Part shown: positions 4,019-59,431 of the stretch, one piece after another
Position numbering within the stretch: the first letter of the stretch is position 1
How the letters are laid out: the number at the start of each line of letters is the position of its first letter
DNA from: an uncultured Poribacteria bacterium
Lineage (GTDB): Bacteria > Poribacteria > WGA-4E > WGA-3G
Assembly: GCA_958295855.1 (NCBI GenBank)
Contig: OY282383.1
Span: 1,404,481 to 1,468,480, forward strand
Direction of reading: 5' to 3'
Length of the DNA: 64,000 nt
Program-made: the position numbers and the translations under genes
Notes under the pieces: generated by a model
Told to the model about the DNA's origin: nothing
What the model saw: the letters and a program-made list of their open reading frames with translations, nothing else
Databases searched by the model: none

Positions 4019-5284
4019 ATGAAAGCCAAACACCTTGTACGAACACTTACCCTCCTAGTCGCTTTGGGAACAGTCGCATTTTTCGTAGCGCGCCCAGGTG
4101 CGCAAACAACTGAAGACGCTTGGAAGGCTTGGGTAGACGAACAGACCGAGACTGTGCTAAGATCTGCGGGAGAAATGGATGAAGCACGCCGCACTGAAAT
4201 GCGCGCCAGTATTCGGGCGAAGTTTTCGGCACTCGCTGCAGCGTTGAAAAACGAGGTCGCGTCGCCACCGCAGGCTGAGGACTACGTTAACTTGCAAACG
4301 GTCAAAGAGCTACGGGATGCCTATGACGAGGACTACAACCGCAGGCATCAGACTACCACCGTACGCGTGACATATAAGGCAGGAGACTCTGAAATTTTCA
4401 CCTATGATGAGAATATTCCGCTCGCCGAGGTCGACGCAAAATATCCACGCGATGCATGGCTCCAGAGGCTTCTTGATAGAGGTGGCACAATTGAGAACGC
4501 AGACGCGTATTGGGAATACCTGTTCCTGCGAGATACGTTAATGCATGTTGAAGAACATCCGCAGGTGTGGACATCCGGACTGTTCGGCATCCCGCCGACG
4601 AAGGAGTGGGAAACCTATAAAACGGCTTACATTGAGCGAGAACTCAGTCGGATTCAAAAAACCAAGCAGACATCGCACCGATTCCTAGAAGGGTTGCACA
4701 GTTTGCACCCGCACAATTGGGAGCAGCATCTAAAGGTACCTCATGTCCTAATCCCTGAATTGCCTAAGGTGACTTCCTTCACTGTGCATAAGCACTATAG
4801 CGGACCACAAACCGTCAAGGCACTCCGGGCCGCTTATGACGAGAAGTACAACGAGCGGTATGCCATGACTTCAGGAAGTGTCGTTTATAAACTCAATAGT
4901 GTCACGATTCTTGAATATCAGACCCCGCTCCCGATAAGCGAAGTGGAGGCGAAATATCCGCGCGACGAGTGGCTGCAAATGCTTCTTGAAAAAGGTATCA
5001 CTATTGACAATTTTGAAGAATATTGGACATATCTATCGCAGCGGGAAACATTGGTGCAGATTGAAAAGCATCCGGAAGTCTGGTCTTCCGGGCTTTTCAG
5101 CATTCTGCCCACCGACGATTGGGAAACCTATAAAGCCGCTTACTTGAAGCAAAACATTGAGAAACTTCGCGGCGAACGCTATGGCGTGGAAATAGGAGAG
5201 GACATCCACAAAGCCGAAACAGACGCCCGTGAGTTTGAGAGGCGAATTAGAGAACGGTTACAACGTCCGTTACTCGACCGGTAG
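4019..5284 (+). CDS. secreted hypothetical protein with two ~130-aa internal repeats (KYPRDAWLQ-LL-KG-TIENF motif family)
   Basis: N-terminal signal peptide. A duplicated module AKYPRD(A/E)WLQ(R/M)LL..G.TI(E/D)N...YW.YL...W.SGLF..P...WETYK.AY is present. It is paralogous to the gene at 8641-10041. Confidence 0.6.
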   Translation: MKAKHLVRTLTLLVALGTVAFFVARPGAQTTEDAWKAWVDEQTETVLRSAGEMDEARRTEMRASIRAKFSALAAALKNEVASPPQAEDYVNLQTVKELRDAYDEDYNRRHQTTTVRVTYKAGDSEIFTYDENIPLAEVDAKYPRDAWLQRLLDRGGTIENADAYWEYLFLRDTLMHVEEHPQVWTSGLFGIPPTKEWETYKTAYIERELSRIQKTKQTSHRFLEGLHSLHPHNWEQHLKVPHVLIPELPKVTSFTVHKHYSGPQTVKALRAAYDEKYNERYAMTSGSVVYKLNSVTILEYQTPLPISEVEAKYPRDEWLQMLLEKGITIDNFEEYWTYLSQRETLVQIEKHPEVWSSGLFSILPTDDWETYKAAYLKQNIEKLRGERYGVEIGEDIHKAETDAREFERRIRERLQRPLLDR

Positions 5285-5436
5285 ATTGCGTTGAATTTGC
5301 GCTGTATGGCGAGGGCTTCGTACCTCGCCATTTTCCCTTAATTCCTGGCCAGTACGAAATTTGCCCTCCACCGGTTGATAATATCCTGAGGCGAACAGAT
5401 ATCCATCGTACCGAAAATCATGGTATTTACCCATGC

Positions 5437-5530: not shown

Positions 5531-5749
5531 TCAGTTTGTCACTTGTCAGAATAGGGTTAGTGGCATGTTTTGATAAGCCACTGCGTCAATGTTAACTGAG
5601 AACCGATAACTATTGCAAAAAATGTTAAGGGCATTTCGTTCTCCTGTAGGAGGGAGCACCGAATCCCGTTCACAGCAGAGACACGGAGAACACAGAGGTA
5701 CGTGGCGCGTGGCATCGAAAAAACGAAAACTAAATAGCCCTAAAAAATG

Positions 5750-5779
5750 TTGACATTTTTCGACAAACGGAGGTATAAT
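5750..5779 (+). promoter_or_regulatory. near-consensus sigma70-type promoter (TTGACA-18-TATAAT) for rpn
   Basis: TTGACA at 5750-5755 and TATAAT at 5774-5779. The ATG of rpn at 5786 lies about 7 nt downstream of the -10, suggesting a leaderless or very short-leader mRNA. Confidence 0.5.
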
Positions 5780-5785
5780 AGTTGT

Positions 5786-6697
5786 ATGCTACAATATGAT
5801 CCCGTAGCGAAGCATCTGCTTGACCTGTTTTCTGAAGAGTTTGCAGCGTTAGCATTTGAGGGCACAGCGGTTGAAGTGTTAGAGAAACTGGACACCGAGC
5901 AACCCACCGTCGAGGTGCATCGCGACGATATGACGTTTAAGGTTCGCCTGCCAGATGAGGGAGAGGCGATTCTTCATATAGAATTACAAACTGGCGATAG
6001 CACAGACAAACCGATGCCGCTGCGGATGCTGGGGTATGCGAGTTTCCTTGTGGTTCGACATGAGATGTCGGTGTATTCGATGGTGCTGTATCTACGTCCG
6101 TCTGCGGGCCGGCATGACCCGGGGCATTATGGTTATGGCAATCCGGACTTGGGTTTGCAGTTCAACTATCGGGTGATTCGGTTGCGCGAGTTAGATGGAC
6201 AATCCGTTTTGGATAGTGGTTGTGTAGGGTTGTTGCCTTTCACGCCGTTAATGGCGGCCCCTGCGGGGTTGTCAGCGTCGGCGTGGGTAGAAACCTGCGT
6301 AGCTGCGGTGAAATCAGCGTCGGTTGACAAGCAGACGCGTGCGACGCTGTTGTTTGGTATGTCTGTGCTTGGGAGTTTGGCGCATGCGCCGGAGCTCTTT
6401 GAAAAATCAATGTCGGAGGACATCATGCAAGAGTCACCCTTTTACCAAGTGCACTTTGGAAAGGTGATGCAACGAGGGGTTGAACAAGGTATTGAACAAG
6501 GTATTGAACGCGGTGCGCGTGAGAATGCCATAGAGAATATTCTCACGGTGCTCACGGCGCGCTTCTCGCAGGACGATGCACACACCGTGCAGCCAACGCT
6601 TGAAACGATTACCGACCTGCATCGCCTGAAGCAGTTACATCTGTCTGCTGTGCTTGCGGCCAATTTTCAAACGTTCCTGCAAACGCTGGAAGCGTAG
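5786..6697 (+). CDS. rpn: Rpn-family recombination-promoting nuclease / putative transposase (PD-(D/E)xK YhgA-like N-domain + DUF4351 C-domain)
   Basis: Characteristic (EQGI)n tetrapeptide repeat and a C-terminal DUF4351-like segment. The N-terminal region is YhgA-like. The track start at 5747 overlaps the promoter and was rejected. Confidence 0.65.
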   Translation: MLQYDPVAKHLLDLFSEEFAALAFEGTAVEVLEKLDTEQPTVEVHRDDMTFKVRLPDEGEAILHIELQTGDSTDKPMPLRMLGYASFLVVRHEMSVYSMVLYLRPSAGRHDPGHYGYGNPDLGLQFNYRVIRLRELDGQSVLDSGCVGLLPFTPLMAAPAGLSASAWVETCVAAVKSASVDKQTRATLLFGMSVLGSLAHAPELFEKSMSEDIMQESPFYQVHFGKVMQRGVEQGIEQGIERGARENAIENILTVLTARFSQDDAHTVQPTLETITDLHRLKQLHLSAVLAANFQTFLQTLEA

Positions 6698-6767
6698 AGC
6701 CGCTGCATCGAGAAACGGGGGCGTGATAGTTCGTAGGCGTTGTGCTGAATGTTATCACGCCTCTTGT

Positions 6768-7295
6768 GGTTGTGTAGGGTTGTTGCCTTTCACGCCGTTG
6801 ATGTCAGTGCCTGCGGGTGTGTCTGCTGAGGCGTGGGTAGAAACCTGCGTAGGTGCGGTGCAGTCAGCGTCGGTTGACAAGCAGACGCGTGCGACGCTGT
6901 TGTTTGGTATGTCTGTGCTTGGGAGTTTGGCGCATGCGCCGGAGCTCTTTCAAAAATCAATATCGGAGGACATCATGCAAGAGTCACCCTTTTACCAAGT
7001 GCACTTTGGAAAGGTGATGCAACGAGGGGTTGAACAAGGTATTGAACAAGGTATTGAACAAGGTATTGAACAAGGTATTGAACAAGGTATTGAACAAGGT
7101 ATTGAACGCGGTGCGCGTGAGAATGCCATAGAGAATATTCTCACGGTGCTCACGGCGCGCTTCTCGCAGGACGATGCGCACATCGTGCAGCCAACGCTTG
7201 AAACGATTACCGACCTGCATCGCCTGAAGCAGTTACATCTGTCTGCTGTGCTTGCACCCAATTTTCAAACGTTCCTGCAAACGCTGGAAGCGTAA
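6768..7295 (+). pseudogene. tandem partial duplicate of rpn 3' half (DUF4351 region) with expanded EQGI repeat
   Basis: 6768-7298 is about 95% identical to 6216-6697. The 12-nt unit caaggtattgaa is present six times here versus twice in the parent copy. Confidence 0.6.
7031..7108 (+). repeat. 12-nt tandem repeat (ggtattgaacaa)x6 encoding (EQGI)6
   Basis: Perfect tandem copies are visible in the sequence. Confidence 0.9.
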
Positions 7296-8640: not shown

Positions 8641-10041
8641 ATGAAGCACGTTGGACTAACTATTCTACTTTTGCTCATTTTCGGCACAACCTTTGTTGGG
8701 TGTCACATGATGCGAAACCTCAAGGTGAGGACAGAGAAATATACCGGACCCCAAACCCCTGAAGCCCTCATGGAAGCGTTTGATACCAAGTACAGTGCTC
8801 GGACAGCAGACACAAAGTGGGCTAGTACTGTAGAGAGATCTTATGGCGAAAAACGCAGCATTGCGTTTACGCTGACAGATATGGATACCAAATACCCGCG
8901 CGACGCGTGGCTTCAGATGCTCCTCAATAAAGGTGTAACGATAGAGAATTTCAAGGCTTATGATGACTACCTCAATATACGCTCGGATTTGATTTTGAAA
9001 GAATTTTATCACACCGGATATGATTGGGAAACTGCTAGAACAGCGTATATTGACACCCAGATTCAGGAGTATCAACTTATCAGTGATGCAAAGCAAGCCA
9101 ACCCAGAGGTGAAAGATTGGGTTGTGTTAGGTGAAAACGTGCTGCCTTCTATTCCGGGGATAATTTACGTACGAAAAACGGAATCAGGGGCTAGCATCTG
9201 GTATATGGCAAGTTCCAAAACAACATCAGGGGTGGTCAAGGGCCCGGAACTCTCTGATAAACAGAAGTCGGATTTATTGAATAGAGGGGTGGAGCCGGAG
9301 GGATGGGAAGTTGTCTATCTTGATGAAAAGGGAAACCTCAAGGTGAGGACAGAGAAATATACCGGACCCCAAACCCCTGAAGCCCTCATGGAAGCGGAGA
9401 AATATACCGGACCCCAAACCCCTGAAGCCCTCATGGAAGCGTTTGATACCAAGTACAGTGCTCGGACAGCAGACGCAAAGTGGGCTAGTACTGTAGATAC
9501 ACCTTATTTGGGCGAAAAACGCAGCATTGCGTTTACGCTGACAGATATGGATACCAAATACCCGCGCGACGCGTGGCTTCAGATGCTCCTCAATAAAGGT
9601 ATAACGATAGAGAATTTCAAGGCTTATGATGGGTACCTCAATATACGCTCGGGTTTGATTTCTAAAGAATTTTATCACACCGGATATGATTGGGAAACTG
9701 CTAGAACAGCGTATATTGACACCCAGATTCAGGAGTATCAACTTATCAGTGATGCAAAGCAAGCCAACCCAGAGGTGAAAGATTGGGTTGTGTTAGGTGA
9801 AAACGTGCTGCCTTCTATTCCGGGGATAATTTACGTACGAAAAACGGAATCAGGGGCTAGCATCTGGTATATGGTAAGTTCCACAACAACATCACGGAAT
9901 GGAAGAGCCACATCGGTGGTCAAGGGCCCGGAACTCTCTGAGAAACAGAAGTCAGATTTATTGGATAGAGGGGTGGAGCCGAAGGGATGGGAAGTTGTCT
10001 ATCTTGATGAAAAGGGAAACCTCATCTTGCCGGATAGATAG
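8641..10041 (+). CDS. secreted hypothetical protein, two near-identical ~210-aa tandem modules (paralog of 4019-5284)
   Basis: Signal peptide. Modules at about 8716-9335 and 9336-10020 are about 95% identical at the nucleotide level. They share the TKYPRDAWLQMLLNKG(V/I)TIENF motif. The second module carries a 42-bp microduplication, EKYTGPQTPEALMEA x2. Confidence 0.6.
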   Translation: MKHVGLTILLLLIFGTTFVGCHMMRNLKVRTEKYTGPQTPEALMEAFDTKYSARTADTKWASTVERSYGEKRSIAFTLTDMDTKYPRDAWLQMLLNKGVTIENFKAYDDYLNIRSDLILKEFYHTGYDWETARTAYIDTQIQEYQLISDAKQANPEVKDWVVLGENVLPSIPGIIYVRKTESGASIWYMASSKTTSGVVKGPELSDKQKSDLLNRGVEPEGWEVVYLDEKGNLKVRTEKYTGPQTPEALMEAEKYTGPQTPEALMEAFDTKYSARTADAKWASTVDTPYLGEKRSIAFTLTDMDTKYPRDAWLQMLLNKGITIENFKAYDGYLNIRSGLISKEFYHTGYDWETARTAYIDTQIQEYQLISDAKQANPEVKDWVVLGENVLPSIPGIIYVRKTESGASIWYMVSSTTTSRNGRATSVVKGPELSEKQKSDLLDRGVEPKGWEVVYLDEKGNLILPDR

Positions 10042-51909: not shown

Positions 51910-52692
51910 ATGCGTGGCGATTTTGAAGCCTATCTCAATGATTCATTTCGTGATGAAAATGGAAGGCTGGATTTAGCGGCATTATTAACATTGGAAGATG
52001 AAGCCGCCATGGATGTAGCAGTCATCATGCCCAATACCCAACCCGATCCGCAAAATGATGAACTTGCCGATGCTATTCGCGGAAACCCGCGTGCCCTCGG
52101 CTGCGCGCTCGTGCATCCGACAGAACCAGAACCGGTTGAACAAGTCAAGTTGGCGGCGGAGGTGTGGGGAATGCGCGGTATTAAGCTCATGCCTGCTGTT
52201 CACAACTACAATGTGGACGACCCCATCGTACGCCCTGTCGTTGAATCCGCACGTGACTATGGACTTATCGTTTCAATTCACTCCGGACCTAACAATTGCC
52301 ATCCCAACCGCATCGGCACCGTTGCAAGTTGGGTGCCAGAAACGCCTGTCATCATGGATCACATGGGGTTTCCTGATGACTTAGATGCTGCCATCTCTGT
52401 AGCCAAGGCAAACAAGAATATCTCACTTGGAACGACTATCTTACGTTTTCATCGCCGCTGGGGGACGGATGCAAACACCGTTGTTCCTACAGAGGTAAAA
52501 GATGCAGTGGATGCGCTCGGCCCGGAACAGATCGTCTTTGGCTCTAATTTGCCGGAATACCGTCCTATTCAGGTGATTAATGCCCTCAAGCGGTTGGAAC
52601 TCGGCGATGATGCAGAGGCACTAATTTTCGGCGATAACCTCGCGCGCATCTATGGATTAGAAGGTTTTTCGTCATTCCTTGCGGAGAATTGA
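51910..52692 (+). CDS. amidohydrolase-2 (TIM-barrel metal-dependent hydrolase) family protein; C-terminal 8 aa and stop encoded by a D repeat
   Basis: HxH-less amidohydrolase_2 pattern (MDHMGFPD, FGSNLPE). The protein ends GFSSFLAEN*, read from tttttcgtcattccttgcggagaattga. Confidence 0.6.
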   Translation: MRGDFEAYLNDSFRDENGRLDLAALLTLEDEAAMDVAVIMPNTQPDPQNDELADAIRGNPRALGCALVHPTEPEPVEQVKLAAEVWGMRGIKLMPAVHNYNVDDPIVRPVVESARDYGLIVSIHSGPNNCHPNRIGTVASWVPETPVIMDHMGFPDDLDAAISVAKANKNISLGTTILRFHRRWGTDANTVVPTEVKDAVDALGPEQIVFGSNLPEYRPIQVINALKRLELGDDAEALIFGDNLARIYGLEGFSSFLAEN

Positions 52693-52925
52693 GAATGCTT
52701 GGTAGGTCTGGCAATGTACTGTAGCTCTCGTCGGAGGTTTTTGACGCAAGGTTTTTTAACTTTCCTTGCGGAGAATTGAGAATGCAAGATAGCTCTTACC
52801 ATTCTTTGTAGCTCTCGTCGGAGGTTTTTGACGCAAGGTTTTTTAACTTTCCTTGCGGAGAATTGAGAATGCAAGATAGCTCTTACAATTCTTTGTAGCT
52901 CTCGTCGGAGGTTTTTGACGCAAAG
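52667..52925. repeat. three tandem D-family elements (period ~88 nt)
   Basis: D1 52667-52751, D2 52761-52839 and D3 52848-52925. The minus-strand ORF 52650..52874 in the track is an artefact of this array. Confidence 0.85.
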
Positions 52926-52953
52926 TTTACGTTACGTTTAAAATGGTGGCAAA

Positions 52954-54063
52954 ATGAAAAGAACGCCCCTTTATGAGGTTCACAAAGCCCTCAACGCCAA
53001 ATTTACCCAATTCGGTGGATGGGACATGCCGCTCCAATATAGCAGTATTGTTGAGGAGCATCTGGCTGTCCGAACCACTGCTGGTTTGTTTGACTTGTCG
53101 CACATGGGTGAGATTGAGGTCTGCGGACACGGGGCGAACGAGTTGGTGCAAAAACTCAGCACCAACGACGTGAACCGTTTAACCGATGGGCGTGTGTTGT
53201 ATACACTCCTTTGTAAGGAGACAGGCGGAATAGTTGATGATATTCTCATTTACCGCCGCGCCGATAACTACTATATGCTGGTTGTCAATGCTGCCAACAT
53301 TGAAAAAGATCTGGCATGGGTGGAAGCCCATAATGACGAGGGCGCGGAAGTAAGAGATGTAAGCGAGGATACAACCCTCATCGCGCTACAGGGGCCCGCA
53401 GCGATGGACATTCTGCGTCCCTTGGCTTGCTATGGCACACGGAGTGTGCCTGCTACTTTTGGGTTTGCTAGCGGCGAGGTAGCAGGTATCCCGACCGTGA
53501 TTTCACGAACCGGTTACACGGGGGAAGTCGGTTTTGAGTTGTATGTAAACGCGCGTTTGAATAAATGGGGTGCAAAACGTTTGTGGGATACGCTTTATCC
53601 TATAGTGACGGCGGCGGGCGGGCAACCTGTCGGACTTGGTGCACGCGACACACTACGACTTGAAGCTGGACTTCGCCTCTACGGCATGGACATGGACGAA
53701 AGCACGACACCGTTTGAAGTTGGGCTTGGTAGGTTTGTCAAATTTAAGAACCGGCAATTTATCGGCAAGGCTGCACTTCTTGCACAGAAACGGAAGGGAG
53801 CTCTTGCGAGGCAGATGGTAGGATTTCAGATGCTTGGCCGCGCGGTCGCGCGTGCTGGCCATCCTGTCTATCAAAAAGGTGAACACATAGGCGCTGTGAC
53901 GAGCGGTGCGCCTTCACCGAGTCTTAAATGCAATATCGGCTTTGCCTCCGTCGAAAGCAGTAGGCGGGCAGGCACAAGGCACTGCCCCTACAATGAAAAC
54001 ATCGATGTAGAAATTCGTGGGAAGATGCACCCTGCGAAAATCGTAGAAATTCCTTTTTTATAG
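52954..54063 (+). CDS. gcvT: glycine cleavage system aminomethyltransferase T, carrying in-frame C-repeat and B-repeat insertions
   Basis: GcvT motifs throughout. Inserts: ACYGTRSVPATFGF (C repeat, 53425-53460) and [11 protein letters not shown] (B repeat, 53966-53991). Confidence 0.85.
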   Translation: MKRTPLYEVHKALNAKFTQFGGWDMPLQYSSIVEEHLAVRTTAGLFDLSHMGEIEVCGHGANELVQKLSTNDVNRLTDGRVLYTLLCKETGGIVDDILIYRRADNYYMLVVNAANIEKDLAWVEAHNDEGAEVRDVSEDTTLIALQGPAAMDILRPLACYGTRSVPATFGFASGEVAGIPTVISRTGYTGEVGFELYVNARLNKWGAKRLWDTLYPIVTAAGGQPVGLGARDTLRLEAGLRLYGMDMDESTTPFEVGLGRFVKFKNRQFIGKAALLAQKRKGALARQMVGFQMLGRAVARAGHPVYQKGEHIGAVTSGAPSPSLKCNIGFASVESSRRAGTRHCPYNENIDVEIRGKMHPAKIVEIPFL

Positions 54064-54254: not shown

Positions 54255-55993
54255 ATGAAACACAACTCGTCTCTGATGAAGGGCTTTATGGTATTACTCT
54301 CCCGGCCTTCGGAGACCGGGGGTATAAAACTTTTATTGTCTTTCCTAATTTTGGGACTTCTCATTTCGATCTCACGTCCAGAGGTTTACTCACAGACAGT
54401 TTCCGAAAGAGCCTCAGCATCTACAGTACGATTGGTCGCGTTTTTCGGTGGGGGTAGCGGGTTTTTCGTGGCACCAGACAAAATTGCAACGAATTTTCAC
54501 GTCGCCGCATCTGTCGAAAGGGGTCCGATTTTCGCAAAAGTGGTTGACAACGAGACTATCTGGGCAGTAGAAGGTGTCATGGCATTTGACGTTAAGAACG
54601 ACCTCGCCATCCTAAAAATCGCAGGGGCCGGCACGCCGCTTCCTATTGGTGACAGTGATATGCTCCAAATAGGGTTCGGTGCAGTGGCGTAAAATGTAAT
54701 CAAATCTATACAAATGTAATCAAATCTATCTGAAAGAGGTAGTCTTATCTGACAGATACAGAGGATGGTGAATGGAGCGTGAGTAGCGTTTCCTACTGCA
54801 CGATGCGAAGTGGCACGCTGAACAGGCCTACCCCCCGTGAAAAAGGTATTTACCCTGCAAAGCAGGGCGAATACCACCTGCGGATGAAGAGTTGGCAATG
54901 CGACTGCAGAAAGGTATTATCCCCGCTTTGCGGGGTAAATACCGATGCCGACGGTGGAGGTGGCGATAAGACCTACGTGAGACCCCTAGCCAACAACGTC
55001 TCACTACAGCATCAGAGACGACACGAACAATCGTTACGACACGTCGCGGACAGCTTAGCCGAGACGTCAAACGCCTGTGGATGCTATGTAAGCCCTACAC
55101 TGGTAGGCGATGGCAGATGAAGCAGGAAGTGTGGCAACTGATGGAAGAACCTGTTAGATTTGAACAGGTTTGACTAGAAATGTATAAGTCCCACAGAGCG
55201 GGAGTCTGTTTATTTGGCGGGTTACCCTTATCTAGGAAAATATAGGGTTACGGAGGGCATTATAGAGGATATCCGGCAGAGCGATAAATGGATACGGACG
55301 ACAACCGAAGCGTATCCGGGAAACAGCGGCGGTCCCGTGCTAAACAGTAAAGGGGAAGTCATTGGTATTCACGTCGGCCACGGCTATGACGCGCGTCCCT
55401 CAAACGCGCTCAAGGCATTGCTTGCTGCTTCTACGTCTACAGAGCCCTTAGCACAGTGGCAGAAACGTGCACTTGTTCGGGCGTATGTCTACGTCAAACG
55501 AGGCAGAAGAAAATATGATGATGGGGACGCTGCTGGGGCAATTACTGACTTGGATAAAGCGATCAAACTTAACCCGAACGATGCCGAAGCCTACAAATAT
55601 AGAGCGAAGGCAAAGGCGAAACTTGGCAACCTTGTAGGAGCGATAGCGGACTATAATCAAGCGATTAAACTTAAATCTGATGATGACTATGCTTATAGTC
55701 ACCGTGGAATGGCAAAGTCTGAACTTGGTGACCATGATGGTGCGATAGACGATCACGACAAAGCCATTCGACTCAGCCCTAAAAGTGCCTATTTCTACAA
55801 TAATCGCGGAGAAGCAAAGCGTTCCGTAGGCGATTATGCAGGGGCAGTAGAGGACTATAATCAAGCCATCAAACTAAATCCTAAGTATTCCACTGCTTAC
55901 TACCATCGCGGGCTTGCAAAGGAGGCACTTGGGCAGCAGGCGGCAGCGAAAATTGATTTTGAGAAGGCAAAGGCTTCCTTGCCCGGCCCGTGA
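54255..55993 (+). pseudogene. trypsin-like (S1) serine protease fused to TPR repeats, interrupted by a ~520-bp insertion
   Basis: His (TNFHV) and Asp (NDLAIL) lie in the 5' ORF 54255-54692. Ser (GNSGGP) plus about six TPR units lie in the 3' ORF 55214-55993. The two parts are in different frames. Confidence 0.6.
54693..55213. mobile_element. ~520-bp non-coding insertion flanked by 5-bp direct repeat TGGCG (target-site duplication) inside S1 protease gene
   Basis: gcagTGGCG|taaaatg ... gtttattTGGCG|ggttaccc. Removal restores ...IGFGAVAGYPYLGKY..., a protease-consensus junction. The insert contains two A hairpins and a 17-nt direct repeat, and has no ORF with a recognisable motif. Confidence 0.55.
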
Positions 55994-56005: not shown

Positions 56006-56395
56006 ATGTTTCCACAAAACTTAAAATACATGGAAAGCCATGAATGGGCTAGGCAAGAAGGTGACATCGCTACTATCGGTATCAGCGACTATGCCCAATC
56101 CGAAATTCAGGATATTGTCTACGTCGAATTGCCTGAAGTTGGCACTGAAGTCGTACAGCAGACAGAGTTCGGGGTGATAGAGTCTGTGAAAGCGGCATTT
56201 GATCTCTACGCCCCTGTCAGTGGGGAAGTCATTGCTGTCAACGAATCACTCCTTGATGCCCCGGAACAGGTCAATGAGTCTCCGTACGATAAGGGCTGGT
56301 TGCTCAAAATCAAAATGGTGGCCTTGGACGAACTTGACGTGCTTCTTGATGCCGATAGTTATCGTCATTCCTTGCGGAGTAATCAGAACGTATGA
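56006..56395 (+). CDS. gcvH: glycine cleavage system H protein; last ~11 aa and stop contributed by a D repeat
   Basis: Lipoyl-lysine motif ESVKAA. C-terminus ...YRHSLRSNQNV* is read from cgtcattccttgcggagtaatcagaacgtatga. Confidence 0.85.
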   Translation: MFPQNLKYMESHEWARQEGDIATIGISDYAQSEIQDIVYVELPEVGTEVVQQTEFGVIESVKAAFDLYAPVSGEVIAVNESLLDAPEQVNESPYDKGWLLKIKMVALDELDVLLDADSYRHSLRSNQNV

Positions 56396-56461: not shown

Positions 56462-59431
56462 TTGGAAAATTCTTTCTTCTATCGACACATAGGTCCGCGT
56501 CCAGAAGACATTGAGTTGATGTTAACAACGCTCGGTTATTCGTCAATGGCATCTTTTATTGAAGACGTTGTGCCGGCAGATATTCGTCTAGCATCTCCCC
56601 TCAGTTTATATGTTGCCCACTCTCCCGATTCCGATGGGGAGAGGAAGGGTAGGCACAAGGCACTGCCCCTACCAGAATTTGAAATGCGGGCAGCCTTGGC
56701 GCAGCTTGCTTCTCAGAACCAGATCTACCGTTCCTTTATCGGCATGGGCTACGCTAACTGCATCGTGCCGCCGGTCATCCAACGAAACATCCTTGAGAAT
56801 CCCGGATGGTATACCCAATACACTCCCTATCAAGCCGAAATTTCACAGGGCCGCTTAGAAGCATTGCTAAACTTCCAAACAATGGTTATTGACTTAACCG
56901 GGCTCCCTATTGCTAATGCTTCCCTCCTAGACGAAGCAACAGCCGCCGCTGAAGCCATGGGAATGTGCATCGCAAGAGGGCAGGCACAAGGCACTGCCCC
57001 TACCGAGCAACAGACAGGTTTCCGTAACTTCTTTGTTTCAGAAACCTGTCATCCACAAACAATTGCCGTTTTGCAAACGCGTGCCGAACCTCTCGGGATT
57101 CAATTAGACATTGGTAACCATCAAAACGTGGATTTCGAGGCACCTATCTTGGGAGCTATCGCGCAATACCCGGCTACGGATGGTGCAGTTTACGATTACC
57201 ACGAGTTCGCCAAACGGGTGCATGCCGCTGGTGGCTTATTTGCTATTGCCACGGACCTATTAGCACTGACACTCCTGAAACCGCCTGGTGAGGTTGGTGC
57301 GGACATCGCTATCGGCAGTGCCCAAAGGTTTGGTGTCCCCCTCGGCTACGGAGGGCCCCACGCTGCGTTTCTCTCTACGCGCGAGGAACTCAAACGCCGA
57401 ATACCCGGACGGATTGCAGGGGTTTCTCAAGATGCAACGGGCAAACCTGCCATCCGCTTGGCACTCCAAACGCGAGAGCAACATATCCGGCGTGAAAAAG
57501 CGACCAGCAACATCTGCACAGCGCAAGTACTCCTCGCTGTCATGGCAGGGATGTATGCAGTCTATCACGGGCCCACGGGGCTTAAGCGAATTGCGGAACG
57601 CATCCAGAAACTCACCAACACCCTACGCACAGGGCTTGAGAAATTGGGTTACTCTACTGGGGATGCGCCTTGCTTTGATACGGTTCGGGTAGGGGTTTGC
57701 TACGGAAACCCACGGAGTGTGCCTGCTACTTTTGCTGCGGAACTGCTGGCTGCTGCACGGGCGAGAGGGATAAATCTTCGCGCGATTGGGGCAGGCACAA
57801 GGCACTACCCCTACAACATCGGGATATCGCTGGACGAAACAACGACGCTGGGGGATGTTGAGGAGTTGCTTGGTATTTTTGAGGATGCGAGGGATTTTCG
57901 GTGTAGTAGGGATGTTTGCTACGGAAACCCACGGAGTGTGCCTGCTACTTTACAACGAAAAACGCCCTATCTGACCCATCCTGTTTTCAATAGTTACCAC
58001 TCTGAAACCGAGATGCTTAGGTATATCCACAGACTCCAAACTAAAGATCTCTCCTTAGTCAACGCTATGATACCGCTCGGTTCCTGTACCATGAAACTCA
58101 ATGCTACGGCAGAGATGGTGCCGGTAACATGGCCAGGGTTCAGCGAGCTTCACCCATTCGCACCGCAGGAGCAAGCATCCGGTTACCACGTTCTGTTTGA
58201 ACAACTGGAGGCGTGGTTAGCGGAGATAACGGGATATGGGGGTATCTCATTGCAACCGAATGCTGGCTCACAGGGCGAATATGCGGGGCTGTTAGTCATC
58301 CGCAAATACCACCAAAGCCAAAACGAAGCCCATCGCAATGTCTGCTTAATACCCACATCTGCTCACGGTACAAACCCTGCCAGTGCAGTCATGGCGGGGA
58401 TGAAAGTCATCGTCGTTGCATGCGACACAGAAGGCAACGTTGACCTGGTGGATCTACGGAAGAAAGCTGAGCGTTATAGTGAAACCCTCGCCGCTGCCAT
58501 GGTTACTTATCCTTCAACACATGGTGTATTTGAAGAACAGATTCGCGAGATATGCGATATCGTTCATCAATATGGTGGGCAAGTCTACATGGACGGTGCC
58601 AATCTCAATGCACTCGTTGGACTCAGTCGTCCAGCAGATATCGGCCCTGATGTGTGCCATCTCAACCTCCACAAAACGTTCTGCATCCCCCATGGTGGCG
58701 GTGGCCCGGGGATGGGGCCTATTGGAGTCAAGGCACATCTAACCGATTTTTTACCGACGCATCCACTCGTCACCGTTGGGGGTAAGTCTGGAATCGGTGC
58801 TGTTTCAGCGGCCCCGTGGGGGAGCCCCGGGATTTTACCTATTTCTTGGGCGTATATTGCGATGATGGGAGCAGAGGGGCTCAAATCGGCGACAGAGGTT
58901 GCTATTCTCAACGCCAACTACATCTCCAAACAGTTAGCCCCCCACTATCCGATCCTTTACACAGGTAGGAAGGGGTTAGTTGCCCACGAATGTATTGTAG
59001 ATCTGCGTCCCTTTAAGAGAACGGCTGATGTAGATGTAACCGATGTTGCAAAACGGTTGATGGATTATGGGTTTCACGCACCAACTGTATCCTGGCCGGT
59101 TCCCGGAACAATGATGATTGAACCCACAGAGAGTGAATCTAGAACTGAACTAGATCGGTTCTGCGCTGCGCTTGTTGCGATCCGCTCTGAGATTGCCGAG
59201 ATTGAGACAGGGAAAGCAGATGGACGAGACAACGTTCTCAAAAATGCACCTCACACCGTAGAAACGGTCACGCAAACAGATTGGCCCCACTCCTACTCGC
59301 GCGAAAAGGCTGTGTTTCCAAAGCCTTGGGTGCGCGATGCTAAGTTTTGGCCTGCGGTGGCACGTATTAATGAAGTCTACGGGGACAGGAATCTTTTGTG
59401 TGCCTGTCCACCCCTTGATGACTATTTTTAG
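56462..59431 (+). CDS. gcvP: glycine dehydrogenase (decarboxylating), single-chain P protein, with five in-frame repeat insertions
   Basis: Full-length GcvP motifs. Inserts:
- B at 56646-56672 (GRHKALPLP)
- B at 56977-57000 (GQAQGTAPT)
- C at 57694-57733 ([12 protein letters not shown])
- B at 57788-57816 ([10 protein letters not shown])
- C at 57914-57951 ([13 protein letters not shown])
Start codon likely TTG at 56462. Confidence 0.85.

Follow-up and report, generated by a model that had tools for sequence, protein, structure and literature searches.

A non-coding mobile element interrupting a Poribacteria protease gene has ends resembling those of IS607-type transposons

Why is a protease gene that forms one reading frame in its relatives present as two in an uncultured Poribacteria bacterium, and what is the DNA that lies between its halves? 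The locus falls within a 64,000-nt stretch of that genome (GenBank assembly GCA_958295855.1, contig OY282383.1, positions 1,404,481 to 1,468,480; hereafter the window), in which two open reading frames (ORFs) on the same strand, ORF1 (54255-54692, 145 aa) and ORF2 (55214-55993, 259 aa, with a TTG start), stand between gcvT (52954-54063) and gcvH (56006-56395). An earlier note on this sequence had proposed that the intervening DNA, placed at 54693-55213, is a distinct non-autonomous element, or a structured RNA gene, that transposed with a clean 5-bp target-site duplication (TSD) of TGGCG. Our analysis bears out the sequence features behind that proposal, and also that a distinct, non-autonomous mobile element was inserted as a derived event, but neither the 5-bp duplication nor the boundaries hold up. 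The revised ends suggest that the element is probably a miniature, ORF-less relative of the IS607-type transposons that would have been moved in trans.

A protease gene interrupted at a GG dinucleotide

ORF1 and ORF2 jointly constitute a single protein carrying a Trypsin_2 domain and TPR repeats, and the Pfam Trypsin_2 match bridges the gap between them (residues 67-195 of the fused protein). Its closest named homologs are from Candidatus Poribacteria, and every one of the more than 2,800 homologs found, syntenic orthologs included, is a single chain. In two relatives the intact gene occupies the conserved order DUF6599-Amidohydro_2-gcvT-protease(-gcvH-gcvP). Since these syntenic orthologs carry one uninterrupted gene, some 0.5 kb of non-coding DNA has been inserted here as a derived change; an ancestral two-ORF state, the alternative that the earlier note had itself set out, does not apply. 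The insertion separates the catalytic His and Asp from the catalytic Ser and the TPR repeats. Both halves are otherwise undecayed and all three catalytic residues are intact; in its present state, however, the gene is truncated after 145 codons. Two further contigs of this locus (L001 and L002, ENA assembly ERZ19489113) show 100% identity with the window and add no variation, and exact look-ups of ORF1 and seven potentially spurious ORFs returned no record.

The earlier note had proposed looking for other copies in the rest of the genome. When 1.84 billion protein representatives were searched with a 125-aa frame read from the insert, a 59-aa spurious ORF (P0362) was returned on L183, a 3.98-Mb Poribacteria contig of another genome from the same sample, and DNA alignment identified the surrounding sequence as another copy of the element, located elsewhere and with unrelated flanks outside it. 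The insert is thus a repeated, mobile sequence. Homology between the two copies starts directly after a GGG (window 54675, L183 4838) and stops at ..ACAGAGCGG (window 55201, L183 5389, the right GG included).

Three independent lines of evidence (ortholog DNA, a homolog profile and the second copy) agree on ends at 54675 and 55201. First, ortholog DNA at the site reads ..CAA ATC GGT GAG TCT GTT TTC CTC GCG GGA TTC CC (QIGESVFLAGFP), while the window after 55201 reads GAG TCT GTT TAT TTG GCG GGT TAC CC, encoding ESVYLAGYP in the frame of ORF2. As the match to the ortholog from 55202 is 10/10 nt, the last 18 nt of what the earlier note took to be insert are protease coding sequence (ESVYLA). Second, against a hidden Markov model of 11 intact homologs the fusion made at the GG junction (..LQIG/ESVYLAGYP..) scores 353.0 bits and the fusion of the earlier note 335.4, which is 17.6 bits worse and requires a one-residue gap. 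An alternative junction at GCA/TTG, with group II-like GTGGCG..TTTAT ends, scored 337.2 bits, below the GG junction, and was set aside. Third, both limits of homology with L183 fall at GG. The window junctions are AATAG-GG-TTCGG...CAGAGC-GG-GAGTCT and those of L183 are AAATG-GG-TAAGT...CAGAGC-GG-CTAACG, so that GG stands at both junctions in both copies, with a G-rich 5' flank and no duplication of the target. Reconstructed from the orthologs, the empty target is CAA ATA G/GG/GAG TCT (CAAATAGGGGAGTCTGTTTAT), and the insertion point is the GG within the Gly-Glu codons. No terminal inverted repeats (TIRs) are present: GGTTCGGTGCAG.. at the one terminus does not recur in inverted form in ..CCCACAGAGCGG at the other.

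What, then, of the TGGCG repeat? Both copies exist, a few nucleotides from where they had been placed, and, as the earlier note had claimed, an in-frame fusion results from removing the insert with one of them (deletion of 54690-55219, 530 nt, gives ..LQIGFGAVAGYPYLGKYRV..). Neither copy lies at an end of the element, the left one being internal to it and the right one internal to the protease coding sequence (Table 1). In 29% of shuffles the two open flanks come to share a frame-compatible 5-mer; given this frequency and the position of the left copy within the element, the apparently clean duplication is a chance occurrence. We also considered a longer, diverged duplication (GAGTCTGTTTATTTGGCG versus TTCGGTGCAGTGGCG); its identity beyond TGGCG is only what chance would give, and the L183 copy contradicts it. 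However neat it looks, a short repeat on either side of an insert says little for target-site duplication unless checked against orthologs or other copies. With the ends so placed, ORF1 as called continues into the element (FGAVA and the stop codon at 54690-54692) and the called TTG start of ORF2 lies downstream of the true resumption of coding at 55202; annotation should treat ORF1 and ORF2 as a single, disrupted protease gene.

Architecture of the element and its second copy

The features of the locus are collected in Table 1.

Table 1. Positions of the element, its parts and the interrupted gene in the window.
Feature	Coordinates	Strand	Description
Protease 5' part	54255-54674	+	Signal peptide, catalytic His (NFHV) and Asp (NDLAILK); ends ..DMLQIG
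Left GG, presumed overlap (crossover) dinucleotide	54673-54674	+	Within Gly codon GGG 54672-54674
Mobile element proper	54675-55199	+	525 nt; no family-matched ORF, no TIRs; ends are the L183 homology limits 4838-5387
Left TGGCG	54685-54689	+	Inside element; TGCAGTGGCGTAAAATG also in L183 at unrelated locus
Left-end array	54692-54731	+	Four direct 10-bp units at +20/+30/+40/+50 from GG: AAATGTAATC, AAATCTATAC, AAATGTAATC, AAATCTATCT
REP-like hairpin doublet	54845-54943	+	Inverted orientation; 31-nt arms 54845-54875 and 54913-54943
Right-end array	55152-55181	-	Inverted 10-bp units: +21 ATTTCTAGTC (7/10), +31 AAACCTGTTC (8/10), +41 AAATCTAACA (9/10)
Right GG, presumed overlap dinucleotide	55200-55201	+	Last 9 nt, ACAGAGCGG, identical in both copies
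Protease 3' part	55202-55993	+	GAG TCT GTT TAT TTG GCG (ESVYLA), then GYP.., catalytic Ser (GNSGGP), TPR repeats
Right TGGCG	55215-55219	+	Protease codons Leu-Ala of ESVYLAGYP

Each end of the element carries an array of 10-bp units with the consensus AAATSTAWWC, spaced by one helical turn and inverted in orientation between the two ends. The left array contains the 17-nt direct repeat that the earlier note had recognized (17/18 nt, at 54692-54709 and 54712-54729). The right-end units of L183 are AAATCTCACA at +21 (8/10) and AAATCTATAC at +30 (10/10). Phased pairs of such units arise by chance only about four times in 128 kb (the window, both strands), and all three occurrences of the 9-mer TCAAATCTA in the 64 kb are inside the element. 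Measured from the new ends the two arrays begin at nearly equal offsets from their termini, against offsets of 3 and 34 with the ends given previously, and this lends independent support to the revised boundaries. From their arrangement we presume that the arrays are transposase-binding sites.

Between the arrays, the only previously recognized features are two hairpin repeats, which are present as described; the remainder of the insert is unique within the window. They belong to a family resembling repetitive extragenic palindromes (REPs), with a CCCYGC-AAA/TTT-GCRGGG core and GGTAT..ATACC shoulders, of which the window holds 17 copies (at 1305, 3645, 7329, 16040, 16093, 18606, 26610, 28650, 61258, 61377 and 63160, among others), at times as inverted, REPIN-like doublets. 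L183 has just one of the two hairpins, and the absence there of the first indicates a secondary acquisition or loss. One hairpin differs between the two element copies by a flipped loop together with a compensating change in the stem.

Neither a coding nor a known RNA module was detected. The six-frame Pfam scan of the element was empty, without so much as a coding relic, in line with the earlier statement that the insert has no ORF with a recognizable motif. The suggestion of a structured RNA gene fared less well: the Rfam search that had been recommended, run on the window, on a 2-kb region and on each copy alone, gave only sub-threshold miRNA and snoRNA noise on the hairpin doublet, and at E<=10 neither copy matched an intron or a RAGATH-18-type omega-RNA. 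Whole-insert folding scores (z -3.4 and -5.1) stem from the doublet, and outside it the RNA folds with no excess over shuffles (z -0.62 and +0.16).

Comparison of the two copies reveals uneven conservation, the left end and interior being 92-100% identical and the 110 nt proximal to the right end about 70% identical, with the last 9 nt the same in both. The left arrays are identical except for a 66-nt insert in the fourth unit of the L183 copy (L183 4888-4953), which would disrupt the presumed transposase-binding array. With its direct repeats of GTTTAACCACTA and inverted repeats of TAGTGGTAAAC, this insert is itself probably a further small hairpin element. Like the window copy, the L183 copy lies in the sense strand of an ORF, and subtracting the element with one GG leaves an open 172-aa frame (..HSLVGEEKW/ANVTITNGEWFDM..) in which a weak match to 3-keto-disaccharide-hydrolase spans the junction (E 0.0016).

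Which transposition chemistry moved the element

IS607-family elements have neither TIRs nor TSDs, their termini contain GG, and they insert at targets with GG at the exchange site, (G)GG being preferred (PMC6188088). The TnpA of IS1535 binds four helically phased 9-bp direct repeats lying some 20-60 bp in from the left terminus, together with two motifs close to the right end (PMC6188088); the circular form of IS607-type elements is joined through GG, its overlap dinucleotide (PMC4058570); and integration is strictly GG-dependent with a preference for TGGG, while excision is precise (PMC10690162). The window element shares with IS607, IS1535, ISC1926 and the CboIStron TnpA-S system the lack of TIRs and TSD, GG at the junctions and in the target, a G-rich 5' flank, and subterminal repeats phased at about 10 bp that start some 20 bp inward of the terminus, with more of them at the left end (PMC6188088, PMC4058570, PMC10690162). 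It differs from the members of the family in its size, 525 bp against roughly 1.7-2.5 kb, and in having no tnpA, tnpB or recognizable omega-RNA. On the strength of these ends, we consider it somewhat probable that the element is a non-autonomous, ORF-less (mini) IS607-type element mobilized in trans.

If so, dimers of a serine recombinase TnpA would bind the phased subterminal repeats and pair the two ends of the element, which would be cut out as a double-stranded circle with its ends joined through GG (..CCCACAGAGC-GG-TTCGGTGCAGTGG..). The circle could then recombine with any GG in a target, and the same chemistry could excise the element without a scar, restoring the protease gene exactly. 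The serine transposase, the circular intermediate and the reversibility of insertion are what we infer from the architecture of the ends.

Several observations weigh against this assignment. The family is recognized here from end architecture and from no other feature: the element encodes no TnpA (MerR-like helix-turn-helix plus serine-recombinase domain), and no TnpB or omega-RNA is found at its right end. tblastn with IS607 TnpA and TnpB detected nothing in the element or the 64-kb window, no autonomous partner with matching ends was found, and a serine transposase, TnpB and a RAGATH-18-type omega-RNA are all absent from the element and the window. Only two copies are on record. The low conservation of the right-end region would be unusual for a transposase-binding end. 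A bona fide IS607 element of Moorena (L180) has no obvious phased repeats at the seed used, indicating that such arrays are not universal in the family. Lastly, a look-alike cyanobacterial element appears to use TA, not GG, as its junction or overlap dinucleotide, its targets being G-TA-T in three fully sequenced copies.

This cyanobacterial family (L175 2186-3851; also L177, L178, L139, L147 and L071) surfaced in a scan of metagenome contigs with a degenerate array pattern, in which the matches listed were mostly 10-bp tandem repeats and satellites. The element carries a 400-aa TnpB. At its left end three to four direct units of the AAATGTAGTC type, the last being AAATCTGTC, begin about 20 nt from the terminus, in the layout of the window element and with a motif almost identical to its own; inverted units, AAATCTAGTC and AAATGTGACA, are found at the right end, and the decamer TTTGACTAGA is common to the right ends of both elements. 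This likeness speaks for the IS607-type reading. Beyond this the two have no sequence similarity. In L175 the TnpB-only element with its AAATGTAGTC arrays is nested at a TA directly upstream of the ATG of an IS607 tnpA (compare L180 2560-2610). This adjacent tnpA was considered as a partner of the cyanobacterial element and rejected, as the comparison with L180 reveals mere nesting at TA.

Other scans were negative. The 18-mer AAATGTAATCAAATCTAT gave 43 single chance matches in genome contigs, none of them from Poribacteria, the species representatives evidently lacking the source genome or the element; four patterns run against viral contigs yielded chance matches or none; and blastn against plasmids and phages found no match. 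A shallow literature search found no description of ORF-less IS607 derivatives.

The best surviving rival, though an unlikely one and minor beside an IS607-type origin, is that the element is a palindrome-associated transposable element (PATE) derived from IS200/IS605, moved as single-stranded DNA by a Y1 HUH transposase that inserts 3' of a short G-rich motif without duplication. PATEs resemble the window element in being ORF-less, in having no TIRs or TSD and in the hairpin potential of the right end, which is found 30-55 nt from that end in both copies; the similar 5' flanks ATAGGG and AATGGG could be a target-adjacent motif, and the cyanobacterial look-alike carries a TnpB, which IS605 also has. 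However, PATEs have subterminal hairpins at both ends and target an AT-rich motif, whereas the left end here has no hairpin but four direct repeats phased at 10 bp, which fit protein binding along one face of the duplex. GG is identical at the two junctions, as a crossover of 2 bp would predict. In addition, according to a 2026 review of OMEGA systems, IS605-type elements insert after AT-rich motifs and IS607 elements after G-rich ones (PMC13565253), and the 5' flank here is G-rich.

Rather less likely still is another conservative recombinase, either an IS110-type DEDD enzyme with a bridge RNA or a tyrosine recombinase. Elements moved in these ways likewise lack TIRs and are left with a short identical core at both junctions. 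A 2-nt core common to the junctions, the lack of TIRs and TSD and the non-coding nature of the element would all suit it. As regards IS110, the element holds no segment of at least 7 nt that is identical or complementary to the reconstructed target, as the guides of a bridge RNA would be, and GG is the published core of IS607. To our knowledge, IS110 elements have not been described as carrying phased subterminal repeats at both ends.

Could the protease nevertheless still be made, with the element removed from the RNA as a group I or IStron-like intron, a group II intron or an intervening sequence of a new kind? Both copies lie within ORFs in the sense orientation, in both the removal of the element with one GG restores an open frame, and the protease halves are undecayed. 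Yet sense orientation in 2/2 copies has p = 0.25, the group I and group II models find no match on either copy even at the relaxed threshold given above, and the RNA outside the REP-like doublet folds no better than its shuffles, while substitutions between the copies break a predicted hairpin with no compensation. The 5' exon ends in G (..AUAG(GG)) and not U, and the ends are (GG)UUCGG...GAGC(GG) in place of GUGYG/AY, so that the earlier note was correct in finding no boundaries of a group I or group II intron. IStrons, which combine a group I intron with an IS605 or IS607 transposon, do share with the element insertion in the sense strand of genes, and those of the IS607 type integrate at GG (TGGG); unlike them, the element has no detected group I core, no U-ending 5' exon and no TnpB or omega-RNA. 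We regard excision as RNA as very improbable.

The reading of the earlier note, a MITE (miniature inverted-repeat transposable element) of the DDE type at 54690-55214 flanked by TGGCG, is scarcely tenable. It has on its side the two TGGCG copies and the in-frame ORF that remains once the segment and one copy are removed, and classical bacterial MITEs are likewise short, ORF-less, non-autonomous and found within genes. MITEs are, however, defined by TIRs and a TSD, and the element has neither: TGGCG is not at the true ends, its repetition is readily matched by shuffling, and homology with the second copy begins 15 nt upstream of the earlier left end, taking in TGCAGTGGCG, and stops 13 nt short of the earlier right end. 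The match of the 18 nt preceding ORF2 to ortholog coding DNA and the poorer profile score of the resulting fusion tell against it as well. An ancestral or functional split into two polypeptides, as suggested by two open halves and a GGAG 9 nt upstream of TTG 55214, can be virtually dismissed, given that the homologs are without exception single chains, that the break interrupts the Trypsin_2 domain, with the catalytic Asp on one side and the Ser on the other, and that the interrupting DNA is a repeated element.

Other repeats in the window, and the significance of the element

Beyond the element, the window is rich in repeats of other kinds. One of them, GGCACAAGGCACTGCCCCTAC, at least about 21 nt long, is present in 12 copies (0 expected): in gcvT (53971-53991), in gcvP (56652, 56983 and 57794) and at 2272, 20266, 20342, 29533, 29600, 30541, 32971 and 50443. 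Several copies, for example that in gcvT, are in frame inside coding genes, which looks like in-frame insertion of a palindromic element into proteins; the gcvT product has 369 aa, compared with 357-360 aa for its orthologs, and gcvP is longer too. A second in-frame repeat, CYG(T/N)(R/P)RSVPATF, is found in gcvT (53440-53465) and twice in gcvP (~57660-57700 and ~57890-57930). An approximately 87-nt family containing TTCCTTGCGGAGAATT has 19 occurrences (0.7 expected), at 52661-52928 (3.1 tandem copies), 54073, 56368, 59435, 59518, 61121 and 63087 among others; it lies in the intergenic spacers that flank the protease gene on both sides and past gcvH, and recurs in the second Poribacteria genome (L183 9237-9341). 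Elsewhere, the tandem paralogous ORFs 5747-6697 and 6654-7295 contain a coding 12-nt repeat, TTGAACAAGGTA, specifying (GIEQ)n, 2.5 times in the first (6480-6509) and 6.5 times in the second (7030-7107). The 466-aa ORF 8641-10041, which is built as a two-fold internal repeat and is paralogous to ORF 4019-5284, includes a perfect 45-nt tandem duplication (9352-9441).

As to what the element may do, both copies are on the sense strand of undecayed genes, and the interior is 92-100% conserved against some 70% for the right-end region. It is on these grounds that we raise, as a speculation with little probability attached, the idea that ORF-less IS607-like elements, more than dead remnants of transposons, act as reversible gene switches by way of scarless excision by a serine recombinase, or carry an undescribed functional RNA, be it a guide of a new sort for a TnpB acting in trans or a spliced intervening sequence of a new kind.

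Because they have no inverted repeats and make no duplication, IS607-type elements are not detected by tools that find MITEs, and a motif of the form GG-N17-(AAATSTAWWC)x4 offers a means of searching for similar elements in Poribacteria and cyanobacteria. The case described here suggests that serine-transposase elements, too, spawn miniature passengers. If these are excised without a scar, as a serine recombinase would allow, their insertions into genes, such as the one in the Poribacteria protease gene, would in principle be reversible.

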